64,000 nucleotides of DNA from Spirochaetales bacterium (lineage in GTDB: Bacteria; Spirochaetota; Spirochaetia; DSM-27196; SLST01): contig SKZO01000066.1 of assembly GCA_007127335.1 (NCBI GenBank), forward strand, positions 199 through 64,198, read 5' to 3'. Positions 6,579-47,113 of the stretch are shown here, piece after piece. Both the position numbers and the translations under genes were made by a program. Position 1 is the first letter of the stretch; each line of letters opens with the position of its first letter. The notes under the pieces were generated by a model. That model searched no databases and was not told the DNA's origin. It saw only the letters and a list, made by a program, of their open reading frames with translations.

Positions 6579-7409
6579 TCACATGCGGGGACGCGCCGCC
6601 GCTGCCCGGTAGACGATGCTTCGTGGAACCAGCGGCGACAGGGCGGCGAGGAGCCGGTTCGCCGCACCCGGGATGATGATGACATCGCGCCTGCGGGGGA
6701 GTGAGTCAGGGCGCGAACGAAGTCGCCGGTGAGCGCGATCGGCCGCGCGCATGCTCCGACGCACCACCGCGTCGGCGTCCATCCAACGGATGAGGCCCCG
6801 GTTCTTCCGCTTCTGCCGGTAATTCTCAATGTTCCGGTGGAAATCAGTGCGGACATAGCCGGGCGTGAGCGCCTGGACGACCACGCCGCGTCGGGCCGCT
6901 TCGAGTGCGAGTGTCTCGCTGAACCGCTCGAGAAAGCACTTCGTGGCCACGTACAGCGCTGATCCCGGGACCGCGACCCGTCCTGCGAGCGATCCGACGT
7001 TGATGATGAGCCCGCTGCCTGCGCTTCCCATACTGCGCAGGGCCGTTCGGCAGAGTCGGACAGGAACCTCCGCCTGGACCGTCAGCATGCCAAGGAGCGG
7101 CTCCGGCTCGGAGTCGGCGACGTCGCTGTAGTGGCTGAAGCCTGCGTTGTTGATCAGCGCGGCCAATCCCGGTTCACCCGCGACGGCCTCGACCGTTGAG
7201 GCAACTCGCGGATCGGCCAGGTCGCCGACGATGAGCTCTACACTCGCCGCCCCGAGCCTCATCGCCTCGTGCCGTGCCTCTTCAAGCACCGTTTCACGCC
7301 TTCCCGTGAGAACGAGTCGTGCTCCCTCAGCGGCGAAGAGGCGTGCGAACTCGCGCCCGATGCCACTGGACGCTCCCGTAATGATGACCGTGCGGCTCTG
7401 ATAGTTCAC
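6579..7409 (-). CDS. Short-chain dehydrogenase/reductase (classical SDR)
   Basis: TGASSGIGREFA cofactor motif, NNAG, catalytic Ser (NVGSLAG) and YVATK (YxxxK). Confidence 0.85.
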   Translation of the reverse strand: MNYQSRTVIITGASSGIGREFARLFAAEGARLVLTGRRETVLEEARHEAMRLGAASVELIVGDLADPRVASTVEAVAGEPGLAALINNAGFSHYSDVADSEPEPLLGMLTVQAEVPVRLCRTALRSMGSAGSGLIINVGSLAGRVAVPGSALYVATKCFLERFSETLALEAARRGVVVQALTPGYVRTDFHRNIENYRQKRKNRGLIRWMDADAVVRRSMRAADRAHRRLRSRPDSLPRRRDVIIIPGAANRLLAALSPLVPRSIVYRAAAARPRM

Positions 7410-7627: not shown

Positions 7628-10600
7628 CTACACGGCTCTCATCACCGCCCCTGCGTACGTGAATCCGCCGCCGAATGCCGTCATCCCGATCAGCTCTCCG
7701 CTCGCGCGGGTGCCGATCAACTCCGCGAGGCACAACGGAATTGTCGAACTCGACGTGTTGCCGAGTGTGCGGATATTGCTGTAGACCATTTCCGCAGGGA
7801 CTCGCATGCGCTGCCGAACCGCGTTGATGATCCGCTGGTTTGCCTGGTGAGGCACCACGAGGCTCAGGTCGCTGAGGTTGACGTGCGCTTCCTGCGCGGC
7901 GCTCCGGAGCATGTCGATCATCGCACGCACCGCGACCTGGTAGACCTTCGGGCCGTCCATGCCAATGCGCTCGAGGTCGGATACCGGGACCTTCAGAGCA
8001 TCGCCGGGCTCGCCCTGTGCCCCGATCGCCGGACGGAATATCTGCGCCGCGGCGCTCCCGGCGTTCGCGCTTCCCACGAGAACAGACGCGGTTGCCGCGT
8101 CCCCGAATATTGGAGCCGTGTCGGGGTCGGCGGTGTCGAGCTTGGGCGACAGCGCCTCCGTCGTGACCAGCAGGACGCGATGCCGCGGCTTGCTCTGCAG
8201 ATAGTCGTAGGCGATCTGAAGCCCATAGAGGTATCCCGAGCAGGCGGCGCTGATGTCATAGCCCGCCGTGTTCGTGTCACGGTCGCCGGCGAGCTCGTAC
8301 TGGATGAGAGTCGCCATCGACGGGGTTGTGTACAGCGGGGTCCCGGTCGCACAGAGGATGAGATCGATGTCGTCGACTTTCAGCCCCTGCTGCTCGAGAG
8401 CTTCCTTCGATGCCTCGACGGCCATTGACAGAGCCGTCTCGCCCTCCGCGACCCATTGCCGCGACTCTATGCCCGTCCGTTTCACGATGTCCTGAGGGCT
8501 CCACGAGGGGCACATTCGCGAGATCTCCTCGTTGTCCACCAGGCGCGACCCGGTGCGCCGTGCCACGCCCGCGAGCCCCGCGACGAGGCGCGCGCCGGCT
8601 CCGTTGCCGGGGGCCGTCGCAGGCGCCGAAGCGACCGTAGACCCGGTGAAGCCTGCCTCCGGTCTCGCGATTCCTCCGGGCTCAATGCCCGTGATCACCG
8701 GTTCGCCGGGCTCCTCCCGCGTAACGGGCTTGAGCGAGACGTCGCCTTCAACGGTCCGCACGTTGAACAACGGCGCGCCCACCTTGACCGTGTCACCCTC
8801 TTCGCACAGGAGCTCTACCACCGTGCCGGCGACCGGGCTCTTGAAGTCGAATGCAGCCTTGTCGGCTTCGAGCTCCGCTACGAGCTGACCCTCGGCGAGG
8901 TCGCTGCCGGGCTCGATATGCCAGGTGATCACGGTCACCGACTCGTCCGACGGGCTCGCGCCAATTGCCTCCACCGTACGGACTCCGCTCGCGGAGTCCT
9001 CGGGAAGCTTCCACGCCACGGTCCCCCCAAGGACATCCACGCAGGTCTCGAGCAACCGCCGGTACGAAGGCAGCACCTCGAGCTGATTCGCGAAGTTGCA
9101 GGGCACATAGGTGTCGCCACGCGTCACTCGACGGGCGATGATGGGGCCGGAGAGCCGCTCGCTCACGGTCGCGATGACTTCAGCGCCCATGCCTCCTGTG
9201 TGGTTGTCTTCATGGACGACGACCAGGCGGCGGGTCTTCGACACGGACTCGCTTACGCGCTCCACATCCCATGGGACCAGGCTGCGCAGATCGATGATCT
9301 CGGCTGAGACGTCGATGGCTGCGAGGGCGTCTGCCGCCTGTCTGCAGAGCCGCACCGTATTGCCCCAGCCGACGAGTGTGATGTGTTCGCCCGAGCGCAC
9401 GGTGCGGGCCGTACCGATCGGGACGAGATGGCGGTCGACGTCGTTCGTCGTGACCGCCGACCGGTCGTTCAAGCAGTTCTTCGGGTAGAAGAATATCGTC
9501 GGACGCTCGCTCTCGAAGGCGGCGTTGAGCAGTCCCGCTGCTTCTCCGGCCGTCGACGGCATGAAGACGTCAATCCCGGGGGTGTGCGCGGCGATACCCT
9601 CCATGCTCGATGCATGGAAGGGGCCAAGGCCCGGACGGTAACCGCCGCATGTCACCATGACGATGACCGGAACCTGCCATCCCCCGTCGGTACGCCAGTG
9701 CATGCTCCCGAGCTCGGCGAAGATCTGGTTGTACGCAATGGGCAGAAAGTCCGCGAACTGAAGAAAGGCCACGGGTCGCTTGCCCGCGAGCGCCTGTCCA
9801 ACGGTGACTCCCACGATCGTCGCCTCCGCGAGCGGCGAGTTGACGACCCGCCCAGGGAACTGCTGTGTCAGACCGCGGGTGATGCCGAAGACATCACCCT
9901 TGGGGTCCTCGAGGTCCTCTCCGAACAACTGTACGCGCTCGTCCGTCCCGAGCCGCGCTCGCAGAACCTCCCGGATCGCTTCGAGCATGGTGAGCTCGCC
10001 TCCGCCCCGGCCGCCGGTGTATTCGTTCTCGCGGTCGCGCAGACGCGCGGGGAGCGGCTTCACGGCGGTCGTCACCGGTTCCGGTTCAGCGCTGCGCTGC
10101 GCTTTTCTGGCAGTGGCCCGCAGTTCGGTCTCCACCTGCTCGCGCAGCGCGTCGAGCTCCGCCGGCGCGACGCCGGTTTCCTCAAGGTGGCGACGCATCA
10201 CCAGGATCGGGTCGCCCGTGGATCGGATGTGCTCGATCTCCTGCGGAGTCCGATACATCCGCTGGTCGTCGGCGTTGGTGTGATTGCTGAGGCGGTCCAC
10301 GCTCATGATGGCGATCGCAGGACCGCGGGTCTCGCGCATCCCGGCGACGATTTCGCCGAACGCGTCGTGGCAGGCGGTCGGATCGCGTCCATCAATGCGC
10401 CGGATCGGTACCGTGTAGAACTCTTCGCTCTGTCCTGACGGGGTCGAGTAGAAGGTGCGTTGGAGCGTCTTGGTCGAGATCGCGAACGCGTTATCCTGGA
10501 TCAAAAAGAGGACGGGCAGGGTGTCGCGAACGCAGTGGCCGATCGCCTCGAGGATCTCTCCCTGCTGGGTCATCCCGTCGCCGAGCGAGCACAGGACGAT

Positions 10601-11017
10601 CGGAGATTCGTCCTGGTCTTTCACGACGCTCGCCACGCCGGCCGCCTGAAGACCTGAGTTCCCCACGGGTCCCACGAGGCTCAGGATCCTGAGCTCGGGC
10701 GCGCTCATGTGGGCGTTCATCTGTCGCCCTCTCGAGTGGGACCCGTCCTTGTTGAACAGGCTCAGGAAGAACATCTCCGGTGAGATTCCGCGGGCGAGCA
10801 TCAATGCCTTGTCACGGTAGTGGCAGTGCAGCCAGTCGCCTGCGTTCAGATGGGGTGCGAGCATGACGCTGGCCTCATGACCGGCCCCCGACACGTGGAA
10901 GAATGCCTCTCCACGTCCCGTGTACTCTTCCTCGATGCGATCCATTTCGCGCGATGTGACCATGTATCGGTAGAGCTCCAGTGTTCTCGTCTGCGTCTTC
11001 GTGAGCGTCTGGGCCAT
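7628..11017 (-). CDS. Fusion protein: 2-oxoacid dehydrogenase E1 alpha + E1 beta + lipoyl domain + 3-oxoacyl-ACP synthase III (FabH-like) domain
   Basis: A single 1129-aa ORF. The E1alpha TPP motif SLGDG-x27-N lies in aa 1-320 (nt 10058..11017). The E1beta/transketolase-like region is aa ~341-665 (nt 9023..9997). The lipoyl domain with ELEADKAAF is aa ~677-756 (nt 8750..8989), followed by an Ala/Pro/Gly linker. The KAS III domain with C926 (DISAACSGY), H1057 (VPHQAN) and N1087 ([10 protein letters not shown]) is aa ~809-1129 (nt 7628..8593). No E2 catalytic core is present. Confidence 0.85.
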
Positions 11018-11096
11018 CAGTCTCTCCTTCCTGTATCGCGACTACCAGTTGAGCATTACACTAAGCAATCCTCTTGACTATACCACGTGGGCCGAC

Positions 11097-11125
11097 TTGA
11101 AGTCACCTTGGCGACTGGCTATATT
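11097..11125 (+). promoter_or_regulatory. Candidate sigma70-type promoter for acnA
   Basis: TTGAAG (11097-11102), a 17-nt spacer, then TATATT (11120-11125), with GAGG 6 nt before the acnA ATG at 11142. The implied leader is very short, so this is tentative. Confidence 0.3.
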
Positions 11126-11141
11126 CTCCGCGAGGTTGTCA

Positions 11142-13883
11142 ATGAGTGATTCAAGCAGGTATGACGTTATCGATTCCTTCCAGAGTGGGCAAGGCCGGGT
11201 GGAATACTTCAGTCTTCGCAAGCTCGAAGAGGCAGGGTTCCACGGGCTCACGCGCATGCCTGTTTCGATCCGGGTGCTCGCTGAGTCGGTCGTCCGCGGG
11301 GTGAACGGGAAGGAGATCACCGACGATCATGTCGCGCTCTTCTGCGGGTATGACCCCCGCAGTCCTGGTGAGCTCGAGATCCCGTTCAGTCCCGCCAGGG
11401 TGCTCCTGCAGGATTTCACCGGAGTGCCCTGTGTTGTCGATCTCGCCGCGATGAGATCGGCTATGGCGAGACTGGGCGGAGATCCGGGCAGAATCAACCC
11501 GCAGCTGCCGGTGAACCTGGTGATCGACCATTCGGTCCAGGTGGACGTGTTCAACAGCCCTGACGCGCTCAAGCAGAATGCGGAGATGGAGTTCGCTCGC
11601 AACCAGGAACGGTACGAGTTCCTGCGATGGGGGCAGGGTGCGCTACGCAACTTCGACGTCGTGCCGCCGGCGAGCGGTATCTGTCACCAGGTCAACCTCG
11701 AGTACCTTGCTCCGGTCGTCCAGGCGCGTGAGACGGACGGCAGGCGCATCGCGTACTTCGATTCGCTCGTGGGTACCGACAGCCACACTCCAATGATCAA
11801 CGGCCTTGGTGTCGTCGGTTGGGGCGTGGGCGGCATCGAGGCCGAAGCCGCGATGCTCGGCCAGCCGATCTACATGCTCGCGCCGGGGGTCGTCGGCGTG
11901 AAACTCACCGGTGAGCTCAATCCCGGCGTCACCGCGACCGATCTCGTGCTCGTCGTAACCGAGACGCTGCGCGCCCACGGAGTCGTGGGCCGCTTCGTCG
12001 AGTTTTTCGGGACCGGTCTCTCCACAATGACCGTGCCCGACCGTGCGACGATTTCGAACATGGCCCCCGAGTATGGAGCAACCGTAGGCTACTTCCCCGT
12101 GGATGAACAGTCGCTGCGCTATCTTCACGCGACCGGGCGTCCGCAGGAGCTCATCGATCTCGTTGAGCGCTACACCAAGGAACAGGGTGTTTTCCGCACC
12201 GACGACTCGCGCGATCCGGAATTCCAGGAAACCGTCGAGATCGATCTGTCATCCGTAGAGCCGAGCATGGCCGGCCCCAAGCGACCGCAGGATCGCGTCG
12301 CGATCCGCGATCTCAAACGGAGTTGGGGTGAGATGCTTCGCACGCCGGTCGAGAAGCGCGGCTTCGCGCTCGGCGACGAGACGGCCCGGACGGCGGTGGA
12401 GGTCGAGTACAACGACGGGACCCGCGGACCGCTGAAGCACGGCGATGTCGTCATCGCCGCGATCACGAGCTGTACGAACACCTCCAATCCCGCCGTGCTG
12501 ATGGGAGCCGGGCTGCTGGCCAAGCGTGCCGTAGAGGCGGGGCTCGTCGCGAAGCCGTGGGTCAAGACGAGTTTCGCGCCGGGCAGCATGGTGGTGACCG
12601 AGTATCTCGTCCGTGCAGGCTTGATGCCGTACCTCGAGAGGCTCGGGTTCTACCTCGTCGGGTACGGCTGTACCACCTGTATTGGAAACAGCGGTCCGAT
12701 CCCCCCGAACATCGCGCGGGGCATTGAGGCGGAAGACCTTGTCGTCGCCGGGGTGCTTTCCGGAAACCGGAACTTCGAGGGACGGATCAACCCGCATGTA
12801 AAGGCGAATTTCCTCGCCTCGCCGCCGCTGGTCGTTGCGTACGCGCTCGCCGGGACGGTTGACATCGATCTCACGAACGACCCGATCGGCACCGGTTCGA
12901 ACGGGCAGCCGGTCTACCTTGCCGACATCTGGCCGGACGACGCCGAGCTTGCCGACTTCGTGAACAAGGCGCTCGATCGGGAGGCCTTTATCCGGAGTTA
13001 CGGCGGACTGGAGTCGTCCAATCCCCAATGGAACGCGATCACCTTGTCCGGGAGCGAGCTCTACCCCTGGAACGAGGAGAGCACGTATATCCAGGAGCCA
13101 CCCTTCTTCACGGACATGTCAATGATCGTGGAGCCGATTTCGCCGATCGAGAACGCGCGGGTCCTCGTGCAGGCAGGAGACAGTACGACAACCGATCACA
13201 TCAGCCCTGCCGGTGCGATCGATCCGTCGAGTCCCGCAGGCAGGTACCTCGTGGAGAAGGGCGTTGCGGTCCGGGATTTCAACAGCTACGGCAGTCGCCG
13301 CGGGAACGATCGGATCATGACCCGGGGGACCTTTGCAAACATCCGTTTCCGCAACCTGATCGCGCCGGGAACCGAAGGCAGCCACACCGTTCACCTCCCC
13401 AGCGGCGACGGCATGGACATCCACAGTGCGAGCCTGCGATACGAGCAGGAGGGGGTGCCCACGATCATCCTTGGCGGCAAGGATTACGGCATGGGCTCGA
13501 GCCGCGACTGGGCGGCCAAGGGGACCTACCTGCTCGGGGTTCGGGCCGTCATAGCGGAGAGCTACGAGCGAATCCACCGCAGCAATCTGGTGGGGATGGG
13601 CGTGTTGCCGCTCCAGTTCAGGCCGGGCGACACTGCCGCGAGCCTTGGTCTCAGCAGCCGGGAGTCATTCACGATCTCCATAGATGATCGGGTTCGTCCC
13701 GGGATGGAGGTCGAAATCGTCGCGACCGACGACGACGGGCGGCGGGTGACCTTCAGCGCGGTCTGTCGGCTCGACACGCCGGTGGAGATCGACTACTACC
13801 GCAACGGTGGCATACTCCAGACGGTGCTGCGTCGATTCCTCAACGAAGAGGCTGCTCCTGCACGAGCAGGTGTTCCCACGTGA
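11142..13883 (+). CDS. acnA: Aconitate hydratase A
   Basis: Start moved to the ATG at 11142 ([13 protein letters not shown]...). Family-typical blocks include [53 protein letters not shown] and [10 protein letters not shown]. Confidence 0.9.
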
Positions 13884-24729: not shown

Positions 24730-26067
24730 CTACTCTCCGACGGCCGACATGAAGACCGTGAGTGGTGAGACACCGACACTCTGGACGACACGATCGCGGA
24801 TGTTCGTCGCCGGAACCCACACGAGCCGCACGCCGCCTTCGAGCAGTTGGTAGACGAAGCTCGTTGCCCCTTCAGCTCCGTCGAAGCGGAAGGAGAGCGC
24901 TCCATGATACTCCTGTCGCAGCGCGGGGCTCAGGTAGAGGCCGAGGTCGACCCTGCCGGTCGAAGAGGCCCGGGGGCTGATGGCGGTCGGTACGAGCCGC
25001 TGGTACCCGGTCCAGCTGAACTGCTGGTTCTCCAGGAGCGTGAGAGCTCCGTACGCGTCGCTCCCGAAGTCGGGTCCCTGGTCCAGCAGGCGCTGATAGC
25101 GAGCTCGCCTGCGTTCGATCTCGTTTTCCACGTATTCCTGGATGTTTCCCGGTACGCGCTGCAATGCAAGGATGTACTGTCGGCCGTCCAGGGTGTACCG
25201 AATGCTCAGTTCGTCGTTGCGCTGAAAGGTCAGCTGCAGAGACGTGCCTTCCGCGACGTATCTCCGGGAACCCGCCGGAGCAATTCTCTCATACTCGAAG
25301 ATGGTGGCGTGGTAGGGCAGAACGAGCTCGAACTGGTTGTCCTCCGGGCGCGGAAAGAAGCCGAACTCCGGCCGGAAGAGCTCGAGATCGAAGGCGCGGC
25401 TTGAGATCATGTCGAGGTAGTAGACCGGACGCCAGACGTTCTGCAACAGCAGATCGATCAGCGGATCCGTGCCCCTGCCGGTGTCCACGACCACCGTATC
25501 GTCGGTCGGATCGAAGACCTGCAGAGTGTAGCCAAAAACCCACCCCCGCTCTCCGGTCTCCGTCATCGCTTCGTACCAGTACGATACCAGTCCTTCCAGG
25601 TTCGTCCGCTCCGGCTGACGCCCGATCAGCTTGATCTGTTCGTTCTCCCGCAATCGATAGACCGTGTTGCCGGTCACGGCCCGAGGCTCGGATCGTATGG
25701 GGAGTGCGCTGCGTGTTGCTCGGGCGTGAAGCGACGCATTGCCGTCGAGAGCGGCCGCGTAGGCTGCCGCTCTCGTTGCCGCGGCCGACTCCTCGGCGTG
25801 GAGCTCGACCCGCCATCGTGCAATCTCCAGCGGCTCGGCGAGCTCCTCAGCAGAGACCCGGTAAGTGTCGGTGATATCGGACTGCGAGAGTACGGCGACG
25901 ACACTTCCCGACCGGATCACGGTTTCGTCCGGTGACCAGAGTACGACTCCAGTTCCAATGGAAGGGCTCCCGCAGGCTCCAAGGACGGCCAGCGCGGCGA
26001 TCGTGAGAACGGTGAGGTATGAAGCGGTGCGCAGACCGCGACCTCGTGGTAGCAGGGCCATCGTCAA
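24730..26067 (-). CDS. Lipoprotein with SH3b-like segment, function unknown
   Basis: Lipobox (AVLGAC). The mid-region YRLRENEQIKLIGRQ...GWVFGYTLQVF resembles a bacterial SH3 domain. The stop abuts the ABC-F start codon. Confidence 0.6.
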   Translation of the reverse strand: MTMALLPRGRGLRTASYLTVLTIAALAVLGACGSPSIGTGVVLWSPDETVIRSGSVVAVLSQSDITDTYRVSAEELAEPLEIARWRVELHAEESAAATRAAAYAAALDGNASLHARATRSALPIRSEPRAVTGNTVYRLRENEQIKLIGRQPERTNLEGLVSYWYEAMTETGERGWVFGYTLQVFDPTDDTVVVDTGRGTDPLIDLLLQNVWRPVYYLDMISSRAFDLELFRPEFGFFPRPEDNQFELVLPYHATIFEYERIAPAGSRRYVAEGTSLQLTFQRNDELSIRYTLDGRQYILALQRVPGNIQEYVENEIERRRARYQRLLDQGPDFGSDAYGALTLLENQQFSWTGYQRLVPTAISPRASSTGRVDLGLYLSPALRQEYHGALSFRFDGAEGATSFVYQLLEGGVRLVWVPATNIRDRVVQSVGVSPLTVFMSAVGE

Positions 26068-26137
26068 CTCCGTGGGGTGAATTCACTACAACCCTGACGC
26101 AAAGTCAACTGCCGCCACGGGATGTGCGACGGGGCCC

Positions 26138-26995
26138 TCAGTCGACCACGATCACGAGCCTGCCGTCGCGCAGAAGCGAACGGTTGTGCTCGGAGGCCAT
26201 GATCTGGCGGGCGTCATGCTCGGTGATCACGATGTCCGTAGGCGCGGTGCCGAATACCCCCGCCGCCTGAATCCGCAGCGGACGGATCCCGAGGCGGTCT
26301 GCGTGACCCGCGGCCTGGGGGTCGGAGGTGTACGCAGCGGCCCCCTCCCCGGCAAGGCGTTGCGGGTCCATGTGATAGGGGCCGGCGAGCAGGTGGAGAA
26401 GGCGTTGCGGCCCGCGAAGGTAGTGTATGGAGGGAAAGAGCGCCGGTTCGACCCGCGCGGCGGTGTTGGTCCCGAAGAGCGGCAGTTCGCCGGCCGCGTA
26501 GATGAGTATGCCGGTGTAGTCGGTGTGCGCGACCCAGCCGAGCACTCTCTCGATCGGGGCCGTCCGGGTATGGAAGACGAACTCGCGGGCGAGGCTTCCG
26601 TGCAGGTCGACAGAGTAGGTGACTCGGGCAGCCGTGAGATCCCGCGTAGCACGTGCGTCAACCATCGTCGCCGAACGCGCCGCGCGCTCGAGCCGGTCCA
26701 CATACTCCTCGCGTTCGCGTATCAAGGTGCCCACGGTATGCAGCGAGTCGAGCCTCACATCCGCGAGCGTGGAGAAGAGTATCTGCGGGGCGTCCCGGCG
26801 TATCGCTCGTTGCGTCTGTGAGACCGCCGCAGGGCCGGTCGCGCCTTCGGCCCCGAGCGTTCGTTCGATCGTCAGGCTCATCGTTCCCGTGCCCCAGTCG
26901 AGATGGGTGGTGGTTGTGTCGTGATCGGGCGCTGCGCCTGCGATCGTGACGAAACAGGCGATGAGGAACGTCGTCAGAGCGGTCTGCCGTACCAC
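26138..26995 (-). CDS. Lipoprotein, function unknown
   Basis: A GTG at 26995 gives (M)VRQTALTTFLIAC with a lipobox and removes the 34-nt overlap implied by the track start at 27097. No family recognised. Confidence 0.55.
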   Translation of the reverse strand: MVRQTALTTFLIACFVTIAGAAPDHDTTTTHLDWGTGTMSLTIERTLGAEGATGPAAVSQTQRAIRRDAPQILFSTLADVRLDSLHTVGTLIREREEYVDRLERAARSATMVDARATRDLTAARVTYSVDLHGSLAREFVFHTRTAPIERVLGWVAHTDYTGILIYAAGELPLFGTNTAARVEPALFPSIHYLRGPQRLLHLLAGPYHMDPQRLAGEGAAAYTSDPQAAGHADRLGIRPLRIQAAGVFGTAPTDIVITEHDARQIMASEHNRSLLRDGRLVIVVD

Positions 26996-27063
26996 GTTTC
27001 TATTCTCGGCGGGCCGCGGCGTCGCATTAGGGGAGCTTTCGCCGGAGGTACCGTCACCGGGGG

Positions 27064-28113
27064 CTACAGACGTTCGCCCAGGTAAACGCCCGCCCACTCC
27101 CAGGTCCCGTGTATCTCAGGGTCCGGCGGGAAGTGCACCCGCCTGAAGTAGAGGTACCATGTTCGAATCCGAAGCCCGCCCCAGCCATAGGTCCAGAGAA
27201 ACGCTTCGGTGCCTTCCGCATTCATGTCGACTTCACGGTCGATGCTCAGCGCGCGTGGTGTGAGGCGCAGAATGGCACCGAGGTTCCAGACCGGCATGGT
27301 GTTCGGATCGTCGAAGTCCTGTTCCCAGCTGCGAGTGAAAAAGTTCACGCCTGCCTGGTAGCGGGAGAGCGTAGCCGTATCCCGGTTCACCAGCGCCCAG
27401 GTGATCGTTCGTCTCAGGTCCTCGACCGTCGGCAGGGTCCAGTCCCTCCGGCTGTCGTAGAAGTCGACGCGCTCGCGGATCTGGCGGTACGCGTCGGGTC
27501 TGCCGGGAACATCAAGGTCGGGGTGCCGCAGCACCTGCCGGTACGCCGCGTATACCGACTCCCATTCACCGAGTAGCGCGAGGTTCTCGGCGAGACGGTA
27601 GTAGAGCAGGCCCCGGTCGACCTCGTCGCCGTACTCGTCAAGGAGCGTTCGGTAGTGCAGCACGCGGCTCTCCGGATCGGGAGAGAGTTTCACCAGTTGC
27701 TCGAGTGCGGCCTTGCGGAGCGAGATACCCCCGGACCGTACATCCGAGTAGCCCGTTACGACACGCTCGTAGTAGTAGCGGGCAAGCGCATGAGCCCCCG
27801 TCTCCATATAGCTCTGCGCGACGATGTAGAGATACAGGCCGCCGTATTTGTCCTTTGGGTTCCTCTCGACGTAGTTCGTGAGATACGCGATGAGCGGCCG
27901 CGGACCCGACTCGATAAGCAGGAATCCGGCGAGCCGTTCGATAGCTACCGCGCGGATCTGCGGATCGTCCTCAGTGGCGACGAGCCGGTACAGCTCGCGC
28001 ACTTCCGGATCAGAAGAACCGGCGAGGTAGTAATCGTCAATATTCGAGCAGCCGCCTGCGGCGATCGCCGCAGTCACGCAGGTGAGCAGAAGCGTACGCA
28101 ACCTCATGATCAT
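27064..28113 (-). CDS. Helical-repeat (TPR-like) lipoprotein, function unknown
   Basis: An internal start gives MIMRLRTLLLTCVTAAIAAGGC with a lipobox. Tyr/Leu-rich helical repeats follow (YYERVV, LLYYRLAENLALLGEWESVYAAY). Confidence 0.55.
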   Translation of the reverse strand: MIMRLRTLLLTCVTAAIAAGGCSNIDDYYLAGSSDPEVRELYRLVATEDDPQIRAVAIERLAGFLLIESGPRPLIAYLTNYVERNPKDKYGGLYLYIVAQSYMETGAHALARYYYERVVTGYSDVRSGGISLRKAALEQLVKLSPDPESRVLHYRTLLDEYGDEVDRGLLYYRLAENLALLGEWESVYAAYRQVLRHPDLDVPGRPDAYRQIRERVDFYDSRRDWTLPTVEDLRRTITWALVNRDTATLSRYQAGVNFFTRSWEQDFDDPNTMPVWNLGAILRLTPRALSIDREVDMNAEGTEAFLWTYGWGGLRIRTWYLYFRRVHFPPDPEIHGTWEWAGVYLGERL

Positions 28114-28175
28114 CGCGGAGTATAGCAGCGAGGACGATCGTTGGCAACCGGCGCCCAAATGGCTACTATGCCCCT

Positions 28176-31422: not shown

Positions 31423-32163
31423 TCAGGGCGAGCGGAAATACTCTGAGAAGAACAATACGCTTTCCAGCCGACGTCTGAACAGGAGGAGCCGTCCTTCCCC
31501 GCTGAACTCGATCCGCTCAACGACGAGCTGCTCGTCCTCGTTCAAGCCGTAGTGCTGGACCATCACGAGCTCGGTCACGAACCGCGGGAGCGGATCAATG
31601 GTGGTCTCCAGCCGCACCGGAGCGCCGGTATCCGCGTCGAGCCATGCGGTGCCGCGATTCACGGCCTCGGGTCCGGTGCGGTGCTCGAACTCGATGGGGA
31701 GCACGAAGGCCCCGTCGAGCATCCGTCTGCCTCCGGTGCTCACTATCGTGATGTGAGGCTGCTCTTCGGGTGCGAAGGGATTGCGCTGGAACGACGCGAA
31801 CGGCGACCCGTCATCGGTGTCGCCTGCCTGCCCCTGGCCAGGACCGAAGGGCCCGCCGCCGGACTGCGGGCTGTCTCTGCGCTCGTCGGTGACATCCTCT
31901 CCGTTGCGTCGTGCCGACACGACCTGGCTCTGTATCTCACCGGTCTCATCCGCCCAGAGCCGCACGACCGTCTCATCGCGCGAGATGAGCTCACCGCGTC
32001 CGTTGAACTGGTCGAATGTCGCCGCCATCGTTCCGGGGAGGAGATCCGCACTCATCCGCAGGGACTCGACTGCCTTGCTCCACAACGGGTGCGCCGACAG
32101 CATGGCCGGCAGGACCGCGAGGAACACCGCGATGAGCGTACGCTTCGTGCTCCGCTGTGTCAT
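31423..32163 (-). CDS. Secreted protein, function unknown
   Basis: Signal peptide (LIAVFLAVLPAMLSA). Shares an ATGA junction with the upstream 32160..35081 gene. No family recognised. Confidence 0.55.
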   Translation of the reverse strand: MTQRSTKRTLIAVFLAVLPAMLSAHPLWSKAVESLRMSADLLPGTMAATFDQFNGRGELISRDETVVRLWADETGEIQSQVVSARRNGEDVTDERRDSPQSGGGPFGPGQGQAGDTDDGSPFASFQRNPFAPEEQPHITIVSTGGRRMLDGAFVLPIEFEHRTGPEAVNRGTAWLDADTGAPVRLETTIDPLPRFVTELVMVQHYGLNEDEQLVVERIEFSGEGRLLLFRRRLESVLFFSEYFRSP

Positions 32164-35081
32164 TGGTCATCAACATACCGCGGCAGTTGAGGTATCGTCT
32201 GCAGGAAATCCGAACGAAGATATACCGTCGTGTCGTCGAGCGGCGAGAAGGACTGCAGGTCGTCGGGACGGAGCCGGACTGCGGCTCCAAACCGGATGGG
32301 TATATCGGCCCAGAAGTTGATGACCGTCGTGAGTTCGGTGCCGAATGCGACCGCCGCGTCGAACGCCGCCCGCGGCGGAGAAACGTCGTACCCTCCGGTT
32401 GATTCGGCGAAGAGCGTGAGCCCGAAGGCGGTGATACCAACGCTCGGAAGCAGCGGCACGTCTACGAGGAGGTGCGGAGTGTGGTAGTCGAGGGCCAGGC
32501 GGTAGCGGCCGCGCAGGCCTTCGGTGGCTGAATGGTCGGTTCTCGCCTCGAAGCCGCGCAGAGCGTAGGGCGAGGCAAAAGGGGCTTTGGAGGCGAAGCT
32601 CGTCCGCGGGAAGACGGATACGACGTGGTCGCTTCGTCCGAGTCCAACGTTGAGCCGAGCGCCGGCGAGCGCCAGAAGCGCCCGGGGCGTGAAGTCGGGC
32701 GCGTCGAGCGGAGTTGCCGTGGTCATCGTGAACGAGCGGGCCCACGGCGCGTGGTAGGCGCGTGCCGAGGAGAGCGGGGTTGCTCCCGCTGAGAAGGTTG
32801 CGGCGAGCTCAATGCGGTTCAGCTGCGGCTCGTCCTGAGTGGCGCCTGTGACGGCAAAAGGCGTGGGAGAGAGGAACCCCAGGTTGTGGGTCGCGCTCAA
32901 TCCGATCGACGACCGGCGCGCGACCCCGAGCCGGTAGTCGGAGCGAAGCTGATAGGTGAGTGCGGCCCCCTGCCTGATCGTCCGGACGTGGGCCCGTTCG
33001 CCGTCGGGATCGTCGGGGGTCACGTCGTAGACCCGGTATTGCGCGTCGCTCGCCGCCTGGAACGTGAACGGTCCGTACCGGGTCTGCCACGCGATCGCGT
33101 AGTCGATCTGGCTGAGCGCCGGGAAGTAGACGGCCGACGCCTGCCAGAGGTTTCTGCCAAGGTAGTCCGCGCCGTATACCATCGCCCCGCCGCCGAGCCC
33201 GCTCGCCTCGAGCCCCGGCCCCGCGATTCCCGCGGTCGGCAGCCAGAACACAGGGCGCGGCCACGGTACGTAGCGCTCGCCTGCCACAGCGTCGAACCCG
33301 ACCGGCGGGGCGATCGGCCGCCCCGGAACGGTGGGAAGGATATTCTCCGACGTCGCGCCCCATGCGAGATCGGGCAGCCGGTCGGCCCGGAGCGTGTACC
33401 CATCGGCGGTGTAGGCAGCATAGATGAGCTCGCCGTCGATGATCCGGCCCGCGAAGGCTCCAACCGGGTCGGCGGCCAGAAGGGCGATCCTGTCTGTTGC
33501 AACGTCGTGTGCGTAGAGCGCGAGCCTTCCTCCGCGATCGGCGCCGTAGAGCAGCGTACCGTCGGAGGCGAAGCCGGGGGAGTAGGGCAGCGCGTCCTCG
33601 AGCTGGTCGAGCAGGGTGACGGTTCCGTCGTCGGCGCTGACAAGGACGACCTGCTGGTCTCCGCGCTGATTCACCAGTAGCGCGACGCGCGAGCCGTCCG
33701 GTGAGACCTCCGGCGTATAGAGACGAGTCTCTCCCGGGTCCAGAAGCACCCGCTCGGAGCCCCGGGGGTCCTCCGGAGCGGTCGTCGCAGCGGTCAGGTC
33801 GAACCGGACCAGTCGATGGTAGCTGCCGGTACGCTGTACCGCGACGAGAAACGACCCGTCCGGAGCGATCGCCGGGTGATGGTAGCCGCCGCCCTCTGAG
33901 AGCTGCCGTGTGTGGCCCGTTGTCACGTCGTGCAGGAAGATGTCCGACGTGATCGACGATTCGTCCGGGTATGCGTGGTCGGCTTCCACGGTCGCGAAGG
34001 CGATGGTTCGGCCGTCGGCGGTGACGCTCCACGAGGCGTGGTCGGTGAGTCGCACCTCGAGAAGGGGATGCTCCGCTCCCGTGGAACGGTCGAAACGTAC
34101 GATCGCCGGACGTGCGTCCGGGCGTGTCCGGTAGAGGTAGAGCCCCTTCTTGGTCGTCGCCGGCAGATGGTAGTCGCTGCGGGTCCGGGGGGTGATTCGA
34201 GGCGCGGCGTCCATGAGCGCGAGATCGGCATACCTGCTCTCCAGTTCGGCGACTATCCGCGGATAGATGTGCCGCATGCGGTCGCCGGTCGTTCGACGAA
34301 TCGCGCCCCATATGCCGAAGAACGGAAAGCGCGCGAAGTCGTCGAATATCTCCTGAACCACGTCGGGGCCGTATTCGTCGAGCAGATACTCCCAGATGAA
34401 GTAGCCGGCCACGTAGTACCGCCCCCGCGGGGCGAGGTGACTGTCGTAGCCGGCCTGTTTCAGGTTGAAGATGCGCTCTTCGACGACGGGGGCCTTGTAC
34501 AGCATCTCGAAGAACGCGTCGCTGCCGCGTCCTCCGGCCGTGTAGATCGTCTCCGTATTGACGGCGAGACCCTCGGTGGTCCAGATGGGCGCGAAGGCGA
34601 TAAAGAACCCGCGGAGCGAGCGGCCGAACACGGTACCGAGGAGCGAGAAGAGGCCGGAGTCGTAGTTGGCATGGACGTAATGCGTCAGCTCATGGACGAG
34701 GAGCAGCCGCAGCCAGCTCTCGGTGCGCGCGCCTGTCCATGGAAGCGAGGGCTGGGCCACGTAGAGCCCTATATGCTGAGGCGGTGCGGGTGAGTAGTAC
34801 CCGTTCGCGAGGTCGGTCTCCCCGTAGACGACGACCGGCACATGGCCCGGATCGCTGCCGAAGAAGCTCGTAACCTCCGAGTAGACCTCGTCGGCAAAGC
34901 TCGACAGCTCGTCGACCGCCGCCCGGTGTGCCGCCCGGTAGATAAAGGTGAAGTGCCTGGTCGAGTACGAGTACCATCGCAGGCTGTCGGATCGGGCTTC
35001 AGCGGTCGTTATCCCGGCGATCGCGACGAGCAGCGCGGTGAGCATTGCAGCGTGCCTCGCGGCACGGAGAGATCCTCGCAT
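32160..35081 (-). CDS. Large secreted protein: HExxH metallopeptidase-like region + PD40/TolB-like beta-propeller repeats + C-terminal beta-barrel-like region
   Basis: Start set at 35081 (MRGSLRAARHAAMLTALLVAIAGITTAEA signal peptide). Carries LLLVHELTHYVHA. Repeated 'SPDG/TADG/ASDG ... LV/IAF' units are typical of PD40 propellers. The last ~400 aa show an alternating beta-strand pattern with an LRGFE motif. Confidence 0.65.
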   Translation of the reverse strand: MRGSLRAARHAAMLTALLVAIAGITTAEARSDSLRWYSYSTRHFTFIYRAAHRAAVDELSSFADEVYSEVTSFFGSDPGHVPVVVYGETDLANGYYSPAPPQHIGLYVAQPSLPWTGARTESWLRLLLVHELTHYVHANYDSGLFSLLGTVFGRSLRGFFIAFAPIWTTEGLAVNTETIYTAGGRGSDAFFEMLYKAPVVEERIFNLKQAGYDSHLAPRGRYYVAGYFIWEYLLDEYGPDVVQEIFDDFARFPFFGIWGAIRRTTGDRMRHIYPRIVAELESRYADLALMDAAPRITPRTRSDYHLPATTKKGLYLYRTRPDARPAIVRFDRSTGAEHPLLEVRLTDHASWSVTADGRTIAFATVEADHAYPDESSITSDIFLHDVTTGHTRQLSEGGGYHHPAIAPDGSFLVAVQRTGSYHRLVRFDLTAATTAPEDPRGSERVLLDPGETRLYTPEVSPDGSRVALLVNQRGDQQVVLVSADDGTVTLLDQLEDALPYSPGFASDGTLLYGADRGGRLALYAHDVATDRIALLAADPVGAFAGRIIDGELIYAAYTADGYTLRADRLPDLAWGATSENILPTVPGRPIAPPVGFDAVAGERYVPWPRPVFWLPTAGIAGPGLEASGLGGGAMVYGADYLGRNLWQASAVYFPALSQIDYAIAWQTRYGPFTFQAASDAQYRVYDVTPDDPDGERAHVRTIRQGAALTYQLRSDYRLGVARRSSIGLSATHNLGFLSPTPFAVTGATQDEPQLNRIELAATFSAGATPLSSARAYHAPWARSFTMTTATPLDAPDFTPRALLALAGARLNVGLGRSDHVVSVFPRTSFASKAPFASPYALRGFEARTDHSATEGLRGRYRLALDYHTPHLLVDVPLLPSVGITAFGLTLFAESTGGYDVSPPRAAFDAAVAFGTELTTVINFWADIPIRFGAAVRLRPDDLQSFSPLDDTTVYLRSDFLQTIPQLPRYVDDQ

Positions 35082-35112
35082 AGCGCACTGTAATACGAAA
35101 TCGCGCCCCGAA

Positions 35113-38875: not shown

Positions 38876-38882
38876 CGTCCTC

Positions 38883-39473
38883 CTACTGCACCTGGAGCAT
38901 GCCGCCGAACCCGATGAAGGCCATCGCCATGAACCCGATGATGATCATGGTGATGCCCGCTCCCTTGAGCCCCGGGGGCACCGGCGCCTTCTCGACCTTC
39001 TTGCGTATGGCGCTGAGGGCCATGATCGCGAGCCACCAGCCGAGTCCGCTCCCGAGTCCGTAGACCACCGACTGGATGAAGCTGTAGTTGCGGATCTCCA
39101 TGAACAACGATACGCCGAGGATCGCGCAGTTGACCGTGATCAGCGGGAGGAAGATACCGAGGTTCATGTAGAGCGTCTGGCTGACCCGGTCGATGATCAT
39201 CTCGAGCATCTGGACGACCGCGGCGATCACGATGATGAACACGATGTAGCGGAGGTACACGAGGCCCAGCGTCTGGAGCAGCTGCAGTATGAGCCAGTTC
39301 ACCGCCGTCGTGACGGTGAGGACCATCGTGACGGCGAGCCCGAGGCCGTTCGAGCTCTTCATGTCCTTCGAGATAGAGATGAAGGAACACATACCAAGAA
39401 AGTTTGCCAGGAGTATGTTGCTCGTGAAAATCGAGGCAAACAGCAGTGAAAACGGGGTGATAGCCGGGGTCAT
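38883..39473 (-). CDS. nqrE: NQR subunit E-like
   Basis: FLGMCSF, LGIFLPLITVNCAILG, VYGLGSGLGW and VPPGLKGAGITMI. These are Nqr-type rather than RnfA-type signatures. Confidence 0.9.
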   Translation of the reverse strand: MTPAITPFSLLFASIFTSNILLANFLGMCSFISISKDMKSSNGLGLAVTMVLTVTTAVNWLILQLLQTLGLVYLRYIVFIIVIAAVVQMLEMIIDRVSQTLYMNLGIFLPLITVNCAILGVSLFMEIRNYSFIQSVVYGLGSGLGWWLAIMALSAIRKKVEKAPVPPGLKGAGITMIIIGFMAMAFIGFGGMLQVQ

Positions 39474-43447: not shown

Positions 43448-43461
43448 GAAGGGGCGTCGAT

Positions 43462-44450: not shown

Positions 44451-45716
44451 ATGGCAGAGAAAGTACTGATGACCGCCCTCTCACCAACGATGGAGGAGGG
44501 TACGATCGTGAGCTGGAACAAGAAGGAAGGCGACTCCGTTGCCGCGGGCGACCTGCTGTGCGAGGTGGAGACCGACAAGGCCACGATGGACTACGAGTCG
44601 ACCCAGGAGGGGGTGTTACTCAGGATCGTGAAGGCCGAAGGGACGTCGTCGAGGGTTGGCGACACGATAGCGATTCTCGGAGAGCAGGGCGAGGACATTG
44701 ACTCGCTTCTTCAGGAGTCGGCGGATGGTTCGCAGCCCTCCGGTCCCGAAGGCGAGAGCGCCGCTGAGGCTGCCGCGCCCGAGGCGCCTGAGGCTGTCGC
44801 GCCCGAGGCGCATGAGGCTGCCGCCCGCTCCCGCGACTCGGCCGGGGCGCAGGGCGACGGGGCGCGTGTGAAGGCGTCGCCGCTTGCGCGAAAGATCGCC
44901 TCCGAACGCGGCATCGATCTCAGCCGGGTCTCCGGGAGCGGACCGGCAGGTCGAGTCGTGAAGGCCGACGTCGAAGGCTTCACCGGCGCACCCGCCGAGG
45001 CTGCGACTCGCGGCGCCGCTGCTTCGGCGGCCGGCGAAAACGTCACCGTGCCGGTGAGCGGCAAACGAGCAGTGATTGCTCGACGGCTCGCGGAAAGCAA
45101 GTTTTCGGCACCCCATTACTATCTGAAGAGCAGCGTGAGGATGGACGGCGCCATGCAGGCGCGGAAGGACCTGAACGCGGAGGCATCTGAGAAAGTCGGG
45201 TTCAACGCGTTCCTGATGAAGTTCGCCGCGGAGGCGCTGAGGCGACATCCGCAGGTCAACGCGAGCTGGCAGGGCGACCACATTCTGCAATTCGGATCAG
45301 TAGACATCGGGCTCGCGGTCGATCTGGGCAACGGCCTGATCACGCCGATCGTGCGGAACTGTGGAAACAAGGGTATTGTAGACATCGACGCCGAGCTCAA
45401 GGACCTCGTCGCGAGGGCCGGGAGCGGCAAGCTCCAACCGGAGGAGTACACCGGGGCTACCTTCACGATCAGCAACCTCGGGTCTTTCGGAATCGAGGAG
45501 TTCACCGCGATCATCAACCCGCCCGGATCGGCAATTCTCGCGGTTGGCGAGATCGCGAAGACTCCGGTCGTAAACGACGGCGACGAGCTCGAAATAGCGC
45601 AGATCATGAAGATGACGCTCTCATGCGACCACCGGGTGATCGACGGAGCCGAAGGGGGGCGCTTCCTCTACGAGTTGAAGCGCATCGTCGAGAATCCGGT
45701 ACGCGTGCTGTTCTAG
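44451..45716 (+). CDS. pdhC: Dihydrolipoyllysine-residue acetyltransferase (E2)
   Basis: Lipoyl domain (CEVETDKATMD), Ala/Pro/Glu linker, subunit-binding domain (ASPLARKIASERGIDLSRVSGSGPAGRV) and catalytic core with DHRVIDGA. Confidence 0.9.
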   Translation: MAEKVLMTALSPTMEEGTIVSWNKKEGDSVAAGDLLCEVETDKATMDYESTQEGVLLRIVKAEGTSSRVGDTIAILGEQGEDIDSLLQESADGSQPSGPEGESAAEAAAPEAPEAVAPEAHEAAARSRDSAGAQGDGARVKASPLARKIASERGIDLSRVSGSGPAGRVVKADVEGFTGAPAEAATRGAAASAAGENVTVPVSGKRAVIARRLAESKFSAPHYYLKSSVRMDGAMQARKDLNAEASEKVGFNAFLMKFAAEALRRHPQVNASWQGDHILQFGSVDIGLAVDLGNGLITPIVRNCGNKGIVDIDAELKDLVARAGSGKLQPEEYTGATFTISNLGSFGIEEFTAIINPPGSAILAVGEIAKTPVVNDGDELEIAQIMKMTLSCDHRVIDGAEGGRFLYELKRIVENPVRVLF

Positions 45717-45724
45717 GAGGAGAT

Positions 45725-47113
45725 ATGGCGAGCTACGATTTCGATCTAGTGGTGATCGGTTCCGGGCCCGGAGGGTACGTCGCGGCAATCCGTGCGAGTC
45801 AGCTGGGGCTGAAGTCGGCGATCATCGAGAAGGAGAAGCCCGGCGGGGTCTGTCTGAACGTGGGATGTATCCCCAGCAAGGCACTCATCCACCAGGCGGA
45901 GATCGTCTCCGGCCGCAAGGAGCTTGAAGAGCTCGGGTTCAAGGTCGACGATTCCGGGTTCGACTACCGGAAGGTCTTCAAGAAGAGTCGGCAGGCGGCA
46001 GACAGGCTGAGCAAGGGCGTGAGCTCTCTGATCAAAAAGAACGAGATCGAGTACATCGAGGGCACTGCGAAGCTGAGCGGCGCCCACGAGGTCACCGTCG
46101 ACGGCGGGAAGAAGATCACCGGCAGGTTCGTGCTGATCGCGACCGGCAGTCGTCCCCGGGAGATACCCGGGTTCGAGTTCGATGAGAAGCAGGTGCTCTC
46201 GTCGACCGGGGCGCTCTATCTCGAAGAGCTGCCGGAGAGCCTTATCATCCTTGGCGGCGGCTACATCGGGATGGAGTTCGCTCACGTGATGAATGCCTTT
46301 GGCGTTGATGTGACGGTGGTTGAGATGCTCGAACGTATCATCCCGACCGCGGACCCCGAGGCGGTGGCCGTGTTCGAGAAGGACATACGGCGCCGCGGCG
46401 TGCAGATCATGACCGGGTCGAAGGCGGAGAAACTCACAAAGGGCAAGAACGGCGTGAAACTCGAGGTATCCGGCAGGGACGGGAAGAAGACGCTCGAGGC
46501 CGAGAAACTCCTGGTCAGCGTCGGGCGTGCGCCCAACAGCGAAGGGCTTGACCTCGAGAAGGTTGGTGTGAAGACGGAGAAGGGCTTCATCAAGGTTGGG
46601 GACTACTACCAGACCGATGTCGCCGGTGTCTACGCCATAGGGGATGTCGTCGCGACGATGCAGCTCGCGCATGTGGCGAGCAAGGAGGGCGAGATAGCCG
46701 TTGAGCATATGGCCGGGCATGGACCGGAGAACGCCGTTGACCCGGACCTGATCCCGGCGGCGATCTATACCGAACCGCAGATCGCGAGCTTCGGGCCGAC
46801 CGAGGACCAGGCGAAGGAGCGGGGTCTCGCGTTCAAGAAGGCGGTCTTCCCGTACCGGGGCGCCGGCAAGTCGGTCGCGACAGGCAAGCCCGACGGCCTC
46901 GTCAAGATCCTCTACGCGCCGGAGACCCATGAGTTTCTCGCCGCGCATATCGCAGGAAGCAATGCGACCGAGATCATCCACGAGTTGCTGCTCGGCAAGC
47001 GCAGTGAACTGCTGCCGGAGGACATCGCGACGATGATCCACGCGCATCCCACTCTCTCTGAGGCGGTGATGGAAGCGGCGCGTGTCGCCGAAGGGTGGGC
47101 GATCCACTACTGA
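45725..47113 (+). CDS. lpdA: Dihydrolipoyl dehydrogenase (E3)
   Basis: Start at the ATG at 45725 (MASYDFDLVVIGSGPGGY). Redox-active disulfide GGVCLNVGCIPSK and C-terminal HAHPTLSE. Confidence 0.95.
   Translation: MASYDFDLVVIGSGPGGYVAAIRASQLGLKSAIIEKEKPGGVCLNVGCIPSKALIHQAEIVSGRKELEELGFKVDDSGFDYRKVFKKSRQAADRLSKGVSSLIKKNEIEYIEGTAKLSGAHEVTVDGGKKITGRFVLIATGSRPREIPGFEFDEKQVLSSTGALYLEELPESLIILGGGYIGMEFAHVMNAFGVDVTVVEMLERIIPTADPEAVAVFEKDIRRRGVQIMTGSKAEKLTKGKNGVKLEVSGRDGKKTLEAEKLLVSVGRAPNSEGLDLEKVGVKTEKGFIKVGDYYQTDVAGVYAIGDVVATMQLAHVASKEGEIAVEHMAGHGPENAVDPDLIPAAIYTEPQIASFGPTEDQAKERGLAFKKAVFPYRGAGKSVATGKPDGLVKILYAPETHEFLAAHIAGSNATEIIHELLLGKRSELLPEDIATMIHAHPTLSEAVMEAARVAEGWAIHY

Follow-up and report, generated by a model that had tools for sequence, protein, structure and literature searches.

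Introduction

Initiation of fatty-acid synthesis in bacteria is thought to need either an acyl-coenzyme A (acyl-CoA) primer, used by FabH, or recourse to one of the small number of bypasses known so far. The branched-chain 2-oxoacid dehydrogenase (BKD) complex of Bacillus, Staphylococcus and Listeria, composed of E1α, E1β, E2 and E3, works ahead of FabH: a 2-oxoacid is converted to an acyl thioester by way of thiamine diphosphate (ThDP) and lipoamide, and a β-ketoacyl-acyl carrier protein synthase III (KASIII) then condenses the product with malonyl-acyl carrier protein (malonyl-ACP). The nearest architectural precedent for the protein described below is QncL, in which pyrimidine-binding, transketolase-C, lipoyl and acyltransferase domains follow one another in this order and from which a C2 unit is passed to the ACP QncM (PMC6335953). 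Here we describe a gene that encodes E1α, E1β, a lipoyl domain and a FabH-type KASIII in one polypeptide (henceforth, the fusion). It lies in a 64,000-nucleotide stretch of DNA from a Spirochaetales bacterium (contig SKZO01000066.1), the whole of which was analysed and is referred to as the window. The best reading of the sequence is that the FabH-type ketosynthase replaces the E2 acyltransferase core of a 2-oxoacid dehydrogenase complex.

Results

A single reading frame with six domains

The fusion open reading frame (ORF), with the order E1α-E1β-lipoyl-linker-KASIII, occupies positions 7628..11017 of the minus strand, from an ATG start through 1129 codons to a stop. The reading-frame listing and the translation show zero internal stops. 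An earlier note, made from the DNA alone, had described a single uninterrupted ORF of 1129 codons with four modules, without stating the strand; it had placed a lipoyl domain with the motif ELEADKAAF and K720 at nt 8858-8860, recognised an intact Cys-His-Asn triad (C926, H1057, N1087) in the KASIII part and remarked on the lack of an E2 acyltransferase core. This description proved correct throughout. All of the motifs quoted are found in the translation at the positions given: SLGDG...AFAIS spans residues 144-181, NSPLAEAT...KRPV residues 393-416, and a third motif, ten residues long and also in the E1β part, residues 575-584.

A Pfam domain search with the 1129-aa product identified the six expected domains in the expected order, all above their gathering cut-offs: E1_dh (residues 16-314, 1.9e-42), Transket_pyr (342-516), Transketolase_C (535-646, 1.4e-27), Biotin_lipoyl (693-752, 5e-15), ACP_syn_III (920-987) and ACP_syn_III_C (1042-1127). 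The same search gave no match to the E2 core (2-oxoacid_dh) and none to the E3_binding domain, also known as the peripheral subunit-binding domain (PSBD), at E ≤ 0.01; no NCBIfam E2 match was obtained beyond the lipoyl region, and scanning the translation for DHRxxDG found no such motif. The window's true E2 (44451..45716) carries both VETDKATM and DHRVIDG, in agreement with the earlier note. No solved chain in the PDB spans E1, lipoyl and KASIII parts, whether by sequence or by fold, the only multi-domain matches being transketolases that cover the E1 α and β parts alone. Likewise, NCBIfam release 20 contains no curated full-length family model for the fusion. The AlphaFold2 (AF2) model shows confident domains, with a mean predicted local distance difference test score (pLDDT) of 81.6.

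Distribution and conservation

Searching 5.8 billion proteins returned 120 protein clusters with the same six domains, approximately 1100-1190 aa long and at 58-100% identity. Their automatic names include "beta-ketoacyl-ACP synthase 3", "2-oxoisovalerate dehydrogenase E1 component", "thiamine pyrophosphate-dependent enzyme" and "transketolase". When one genome per species was scanned, a relative of the fusion was found in 467 genomes. Locus analyses were carried out on the best 80 of these, with 10-kb flanks; here essentially the whole protein is covered at 49-89% identity, one locus (L051) being cut by a contig end. Carriers include Spirochaetota, Planctomycetota (Pirellulaceae, Planctomycetaceae), Lentisphaerae (Lentisphaerales), Kiritimatiellia, Verrucomicrobia, Armatimonadia, Sumerlaeota, Nitrospirales, Gammaproteobacteria and one Xenococcus cyanobacterium, making up at least eight phyla. 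Complete genomes are among them, for example OZ271836.1, OY763414.1, OZ247499.1, OZ245007.1 and WLWT01000001.1. The sole match assigned to a named cultured species comes from Marinobacter halodurans (L064; contig_060, 11.8 kb) and is 58% identical to the spirochaete protein; this copy may reflect horizontal transfer or contamination of the assembly.

Residue conservation was scored in 187 distinct full-length homologues at 49-100% identity (counts given as "/187"). All are uninterrupted sequences of 1100-1250 aa with identical domain order, and they come from many phyla and assemblers. Y67, R68, G146, G148, N176, H246, H468, K720, C926, H1057 and N1087 are invariant (187/187), R1062 is present in 186/187 and E367 in 177/187. 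Furthermore, three NCBI/ENA contigs encode exactly this 1129-aa sequence, and eight independently assembled Logan contigs yielded a different protein of 1129 aa that belongs to its 90%-identity cluster.

The idea that the long ORF is an artefact of assembly or frameshifting, joining what are in fact separate genes, has next to no probability. The gene does suffer errors, as seen from the family entries P0133 and P0136, which are split into two or three pieces, but it is these split entries, from low-coverage contigs, that are the artefacts. The occurrence of full-length homologues in many phyla, and of the identical protein in independent assemblies, excludes an artefact and establishes the fusion as a genuine conserved protein.

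P0133 and P0136, whose short products look like "lipoyl-KASIII" and "E1-only" proteins, were discarded as evidence for a split system, since they are frameshift-split copies. At L084 (6681-9603) and L085 (1873-4633), both low-coverage metagenome contigs, the fusion gene is called as two or three genes, and the frameshifts mimic a multi-subunit system.

The E1 module

Coordinates of all parts of the fusion refer to the minus strand. The E1α module (residues 16-314; 10076..10972) has the ThDP/Mg motif G146-D147-G148...D175-N176 as well as the Y67-R68 pair; position 147 is D or E across the homologues. Its catalytic histidine, H246 (nt 10280-10282), aligns with H291 of human branched-chain ketoacid dehydrogenase (BCKD) E1α. 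In the E1β part, the pyrimidine-binding module (residues 342-516; 9470..9994) contains the cofactor-activating glutamate, identified as E367 (nt 9917-9919) by alignment to solved structures, and the catalytic H468 (nt 9614-9616), which aligns with H128 of Geobacillus stearothermophilus E1β and with H146 of human BCKD E1β. The transketolase C domain (residues 535-646; 9080..9415) completes the module. Pfam scores are 145.7 bits for E1_dh, 90.6 for Transket_pyr and 96.5 for Transketolase_C, against cut-offs of 22, 27 and 25.9, respectively. The histidines equivalent to BCKD α-H291 and E1β H128 are those needed for reductive acylation of lipoamide. Because both are invariant in the family, the E1 module is equipped to load a lipoyl arm and not just to decarboxylate its substrate.

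Identity between the fusion E1 and the E1 of the window's own pyruvate dehydrogenase (PDH) is just 27-30%, which makes the former an old paralogue of PDH E1 and not a recent duplicate. The best PDB match of the α part is the Thermus BCKD-type E1 (120 bits); for the β part, the Thermus branched-chain E1 (193 bits) and Pyrobaculum E1β (1ik6, 194.6 bits) are joint best. The α part scores 61 bits with Pseudomonas putida BCKD α, and the margins of the Thermus E1 over PDH E1 are small. Assigning a substrate from PDB similarity and motifs was tried and dropped, as these margins are too small. The name "2-oxoisovalerate dehydrogenase E1" borne by some relatives is an automatic JGI label.

The lipoyl domain and its linkers

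The lipoyl domain comprises approximately residues 678-755 (8753..8986). It scores 55.4 bits with Biotin_lipoyl (PF00364), matches the lipoyl regions of E2 proteins in NCBIfam and is modelled by AF2 as a β-barrel with strands between residues 679 and 754. The lipoyl-lysine, K720, is situated in ELEADKAAF (residues 715-723). The linker joining E1β to the lipoyl domain has a fixed length (20-23 aa in the 187 homologues); that between the lipoyl and KAS domains ranges from 38 to 126 aa.

The latter linker contains an almost invariant motif, K763-P-x-T-R-E768-E-P-G771-x-P773-x-I (residues 763-776; 8690..8731), defined from the 187-homologue alignment, where E768 is found in 185/187, G771 in 187/187 and P773 in 186/187. 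In the full-length AF2 model, residues 772-776 form a strand with a pLDDT of about 74; when the E1 module is omitted, the segment is disordered (about 30). This is a weak hint from modelling that the motif might dock on E1, perhaps replacing a subunit-binding domain. The motif can also be recognised in two distant variants, P0135 (KPVTKEILGQPI) and P0152, described below. It is followed by a variable Ala/Pro/Gly-rich flexible linker (residues 777-812; 8582..8689), predicted to be disordered (AF2 pLDDT below 50 at residues 781-808).

A FabH-type domain with an altered CoA site

The KASIII domain (residues 813-1129; 7631..8581) was delimited with NCBIfam and Foldseek. Residues 813-1127 score 266.1 with NF006829, a FabH subfamily model whose cut-off is 249, but do not reach TIGR00747 (240.4 against 292.1), and the domain superimposes on FabH structures with template modelling (TM) scores of 0.91-0.93. 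Functional residues were mapped from Escherichia coli FabH, which is identical to PDB entry 1hn9, onto 196 family members. The catalytic triad C926 (nt 8240-8242), H1057 (7847-7849) and N1087 (7757-7759) aligns with C112, H244 and N274 of FabH and is conserved in 196/196 of these sequences as well as in 187/187 full-length homologues. The ACP-docking arginine, R249 in FabH, is retained as R1062 (186/187). As to the FabH basic patch, R36 is found in 174/196 sequences and K257 is R or K. The pantetheine-tunnel residues M207, G209, A246 and N247 (FabH numbering) are kept across the 196 members.

The situation is different at the nucleotide end of the acyl-CoA site. W32 and R151, which clamp the adenine, are present in six aligned KASIIIs that use acyl-CoA, namely the FabHs of E. 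coli, Aquifex, Staphylococcus aureus, Vibrio cholerae and Bacillus subtilis and ZhuH. In the fusion family, R151 (P965 here) is replaced by Pro, Phe, Ala, Gly or Tyr, N210 by Pro, and K214 by Leu, Gln or Val; W32 corresponds to D843 in the phmmer register, in agreement with the helix boundaries of the AF2 model (841-848), a helix that matches FabH helix 29-36 in 1hn9. The M. tuberculosis FabH mutants W42A/R161A and R46A/R161A deposited in the PDB (2aj9, 2ahb) target equivalent positions, which confirms that these positions are regarded as functional. A conserved tryptophan, W839 (159/187), sits four residues upstream from D843 and so still near the adenine site; to judge from the alignments, the nucleotide site for acyl-CoA is therefore not simply gone but remodelled, and the ACP site is kept.

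F87 of FabH is replaced by Thr or Ser in the fusion family, Thr being likewise the residue in ZhuH. M. tuberculosis FabH also has Thr at this position, and both enzymes accept primers larger than acetyl. Thr87 thus suggests a primer pocket that would hold more than an acetyl group.

Variants linking the ketosynthase to ACP

The lipoyl-linker-KAS junction was searched against 1.84 billion representatives at the 50%-identity level. At least 219 matches were obtained at E ≤ 1e-10, mostly full-length fusions. Three variants among them are informative. P0152 (1942 aa; L081, 10001-15829) contains the whole fusion followed by a ketoreductase (KR) and a phosphopantetheine-binding (ACP) domain. Two regions lack a Pfam match, one of approximately 235 aa ahead of the KR (residues 1100-1337) and a C-terminal one of 257 aa (1683-1942). 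The gene adjoins glycosyltransferase-4 and Wzy_C genes, and its product may act as a lipid or ketide synthase in a single protein. P0135 (803 aa; L082, 633-3288) has the order E1β-lipoyl-KASIII and overlaps by 8 nt the gene for an 83-aa ACP. P0161 (450 aa; L083, 18-1621) consists of lipoyl and KASIII parts and is directly followed by an 81-aa ACP gene; it begins 18 nt from the contig end and may be incomplete. KR and ACP after a ketosynthase are as expected for a β-ketoacyl-ACP product. In L082, no E1α gene is visible upstream of P0135, and the sequence HQAN after the catalytic His reads HPGS.

The KASIII-like domain could conceivably be a transacylase only, acting in the role of the E2 core by unloading the lipoyl arm onto holo-ACP (or CoA) and leaving condensation to a separate ketosynthase. 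We consider this unlikely. Acyltransferases with a KASIII fold are known (DpsC, CerJ), and the distant variants do have ACP genes directly after them. Moreover, the KASIII domain is placed where QncL, which hands its C2 unit to an ACP, has the E2 catalytic domain (PMC6335953). However, H1057 and N1087, the residues for decarboxylation of a malonyl extender, are both present in 187/187 homologues, and the domain passes the FabH subfamily cut-off. KASIII-fold acyltransferases usually lose the His and/or the Asn. Transfer to CoA is unlikely because the adenine clamp is gone, and the presence of a KR after KASIII in P0152 implies a β-keto product. The earlier note had allowed, as its second choice, for KASIII acting as an acyltransferase instead of the E2 core; the invariance of His and Asn disfavours this option.

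A candidate initiation module

The reading that we prefer, and hold to be probable on the strength of the sequence comparisons, is that the fusion forms a self-contained module for starting acyl chains, in which the acyl group would pass from E1 to the protein's own lipoyl arm, then to the KASIII cysteine and finally into 3-oxoacyl-ACP. The E1αβ part, presumably as an (αβ)2 dimer, would decarboxylate a 2-oxoacid on ThDP and then reductively acylate the lipoyl-lysine, K720, on its own C-terminal domain. The S-acyl-dihydrolipoyl arm would enter the pantetheine tunnel of KASIII and, in place of acyl-CoA, deliver its acyl group to C926. Malonyl-ACP would dock at R1062, and H1057 and N1087 would drive a decarboxylative Claisen condensation, the resulting 3-oxoacyl-ACP feeding either the type II fatty-acid pathway or some related route to ketides. 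Last, a free dihydrolipoyl dehydrogenase (E3) would reoxidise the arm with NAD+. The net reaction would be 2-oxoacid + malonyl-ACP + NAD+ → 3-oxoacyl-ACP + 2 CO2 + NADH, with no CoA involved. The earlier note had proposed this same transfer, from E1 via the lipoyl arm to the cysteine of KASIII without passing through acyl-CoA. The sequence tests support it: the catalytic set is invariant, the ACP-docking arginine is kept, the adenine clamp is replaced, ACP and KR occur in the variants, the protein lacks both an E2 core and a PSBD, and no E2 gene is conserved near it.

Several points weigh against this proposal. To our knowledge, direct trans-thioesterification from an acyl-dihydrolipoyl group to a ketosynthase cysteine has never been demonstrated. 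With the E3-binding domain absent from the fusion, recycling of the arm would depend on free E3. The cofactor-activating glutamate (E367) is changed to Gln in 10/187 homologues, in which the other catalytic residues are intact. The fusion E1 falls below every NCBIfam PDH equivalog cut-off, with scores of 167.5 against 411 and 145.4 against 394 (TIGR03181/03182) and 197 against 454 (NF008854). No ACP gene is directly adjacent to a full-length fusion in the 80 loci. Finally, the register around W32 is ambiguous: MAFFT places W839 on W32 by means of a 4-residue gap, and in either register a Trp stays near the site. The MAFFT register was judged a forced-gap artefact, given that the phmmer pairwise alignments and the AF2 helix at 841-848 favour D843.

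Genomic context

ORF clustering in the 10-kb flanks of the 80 loci revealed no universally conserved neighbour, be it ACP, E2, E3, fab or lipoate ligase. An ACP gene is missing within 10 kb from 78/80 full-length loci and from the window as well, and E2 and Lpd genes almost never occur within that distance. The divergent aconitase gene and NeuB upstream represent synteny among spirochaetes only; neighbours in the other phyla are unrelated. Given that no neighbour is conserved and that neither E2 nor E3 is adjacent, the fusion gene behaves as a self-sufficient unit, which fits with the protein drawing on housekeeping AcpP and E3. In the window, the PDH operon (42428-47113) encodes E1α, E1β, E2 and Lpd, all scoring above equivalog cut-offs. 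Its dihydrolipoyl dehydrogenase gene (E3, Lpd; 45623..47113, plus strand; TIGR01350 527 bits against a cut-off of 409) is, as pointed out in the earlier note, the only lpd in the window; it is hence the only candidate here that may reoxidise the lipoyl arm in trans. No fab genes, lipoate ligase or biosynthetic cluster were found elsewhere in the window, the rest of which consists of housekeeping genes.

These data bear on two further interpretations. In one, the modules would be fused for co-expression only: a separate E2 would make acyl-CoA, and KASIII would use it like an ordinary FabH. Fusions of consecutive pathway enzymes that do not channel intermediates are common, and BKD followed by FabH, via acyl-CoA, is the established route of branched-chain priming (PMC10026030). 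Yet a separate E2 complex would have no use for a lipoyl domain set apart from the E2 core, the surroundings hold no conserved E2, the W32/R151 adenine clamp is lost, and the lipoyl domain stays with KASIII in the variants. This makes the interpretation very improbable. The other concerns the substrate and not the hand-off. It accepts the transfer from lipoyl arm to KASIII and supposes that the ThDP donor is something else, for example acetoin or, by analogy with QncN/QncL, a ketose phosphate, and that the end product is not bulk membrane fatty acid but a specialised lipid or ketide. E1-lipoyl systems of the QncN/L type do use ketose phosphates, and the fusion E1 fails all PDH equivalog cut-offs and is 27-30% identical to the window's PDH E1. 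P0152, for its part, resembles a polyketide synthase module (KR, ACP, unassigned C-terminal domain) and stands beside glycosyltransferase and Wzy genes. On the other hand, no biosynthetic cluster surrounds the window copy, whose neighbours are housekeeping genes; the solved E1s nearest to it belong to 2-oxoacid dehydrogenases (Thermus branched-chain E1); and a core function is suggested by the fixed length and by a conservation that is wide and looks vertical. We think it quite unlikely that the donor is of this unusual kind.

The fusion gene is preceded by a strong ribosome-binding site, GGAAGGAGAG (11022..11031, minus strand), read from the sequence 5 nt upstream of the ATG. Farther upstream is a σ70-like promoter match (11077..11106, minus strand; GTGACT, 18-nt spacer, TG-TATAGT), identified by consensus alone. 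The aconitase ORF as called (11001-13883, plus strand) overlaps the fusion start by 17 nt. Its true start is likely the in-frame ATG at 11142, which gives a protein of 913 aa compared with a family median of 906. With this start, a 124-bp divergent intergenic region is common to the fusion and aconitase genes, and the promoter-like site falls within it. On the other side, 218 bp downstream of the fusion, is a gene for an oxidoreductase of the short-chain dehydrogenase/reductase (SDR) family (6579..7409, minus strand; Pfam adh_short 1.2e-38). An SDR gene is found downstream of the fusion in 13/80 loci, all of them spirochaetal and including the window, with a gap as small as 1 nt in L010-L012; it is absent from the other phyla. 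The SDR might be a ketoacyl reductase partner in close spirochaete relatives only.

The window has a G+C content of 63.5%. An Rnf/Nqr-type run (37733-40923, minus strand), comprising an FMN-binding subunit, two Rnf-Nqr membrane subunits and a 2Fe-2S/FAD/NAD reductase subunit, is located just upstream of the PDH operon and divergent from it. Two segments (24730-28158 and 32160-35225, both minus strand) hold three consecutive ORFs (445, 319 and 364 aa) with no Pfam match and a 1021-aa ORF with only a faint match to PD40 repeats.

Discussion

The earlier note did not recognise the architecture as that of a characterised enzyme, and neither a description, a solved structure nor a full-length family model has come to light. 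Full-text literature searches, with subscription-only papers outside their scope, yielded no published description of an E1-lipoyl-KASIII fusion and nothing relevant on the fatty-acid composition of Alkalispirochaeta. We regard the chances as evenly balanced that a lipoyl arm here serves as acyl donor to a ketosynthase, that this amounts to a CoA-independent start of chain synthesis on one polypeptide in at least eight phyla and that, in some lineages, the fusion is perhaps the sole initiator of type II fatty-acid synthesis, replacing FabH. If so, the hand-off from carrier to ketosynthase would be of a kind not described before, and lipoamide would be seen to have a further role, feeding a ketosynthase. 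A new initiation route would lead from 2-oxoacid to 3-oxoacyl-ACP on one chain. Next to the 2-oxoacid dehydrogenase complexes, with their megadalton masses, the protein would be a minimal relative no larger than a dimer, and this would make it a good subject for structural studies of swinging-arm catalysis; it could also provide a compact part for engineering branched- and odd-chain fatty acids and polyketide starters without competition for the acyl-CoA pool. Automatic annotations such as "beta-ketoacyl-ACP synthase 3", "2-oxoisovalerate dehydrogenase E1" and "transketolase" would need to be corrected.

Comparison with known systems sets the fusion apart from each of them. In the proposed cycle, the overall chemistry is that of BKD plus FabH, and both systems have a lipoyl domain, an E1 of one fold with shared catalytic residues and a ketosynthase with the fold and triad of FabH; the fusion differs in being a single chain with no E2 core and no PSBD, with the CoA-adenine clamp replaced and, in the proposed cycle, no acyl-CoA intermediate. 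Canonical FabH (1hn9), M. tuberculosis FabH and ZhuH share with its KASIII domain the fold, the triad, R249 and the tunnel residues, whereas the fusion domain is not free-standing, has W32 and R151 replaced and scores below the TIGR00747 cut-off. There are precedents for parts of the arrangement. A PDH E1β with an N-terminal lipoyl domain (NF008854/PRK11892 type) shows that an E1 subunit can carry a lipoyl domain, although there the domain is N-terminal to E1β and a normal E2 is used, while in the fusion it is C-terminal and followed by KASIII. Actinobacterial OdhA/KGD (NF008907), which joins a 2-oxoglutarate-type E1 (E1o) to an E2 succinyltransferase, sets a precedent for E1 fused to an acceptor of the lipoamide acyl group; OdhA has no lipoyl domain of its own, makes acyl-CoA and has an E2 domain, not a ketosynthase, as partner. 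The closest likeness remains with the glycolicacyl-ACP system of tetrahydroisoquinoline and scleric acid synthesis (QncN/QncL/QncM and SclQ1-4), where E1-like and lipoyl parts are fused to an enzyme that unloads the arm onto a carrier protein, and where QncL parallels P0135 and its ACP. In that system, however, the last domain is an E2-type acyltransferase, the donor is a ketose phosphate and the genes belong to a secondary-metabolite cluster with a dedicated ACP, whereas the fusion ends in a ketosynthase and stands alone among housekeeping genes.

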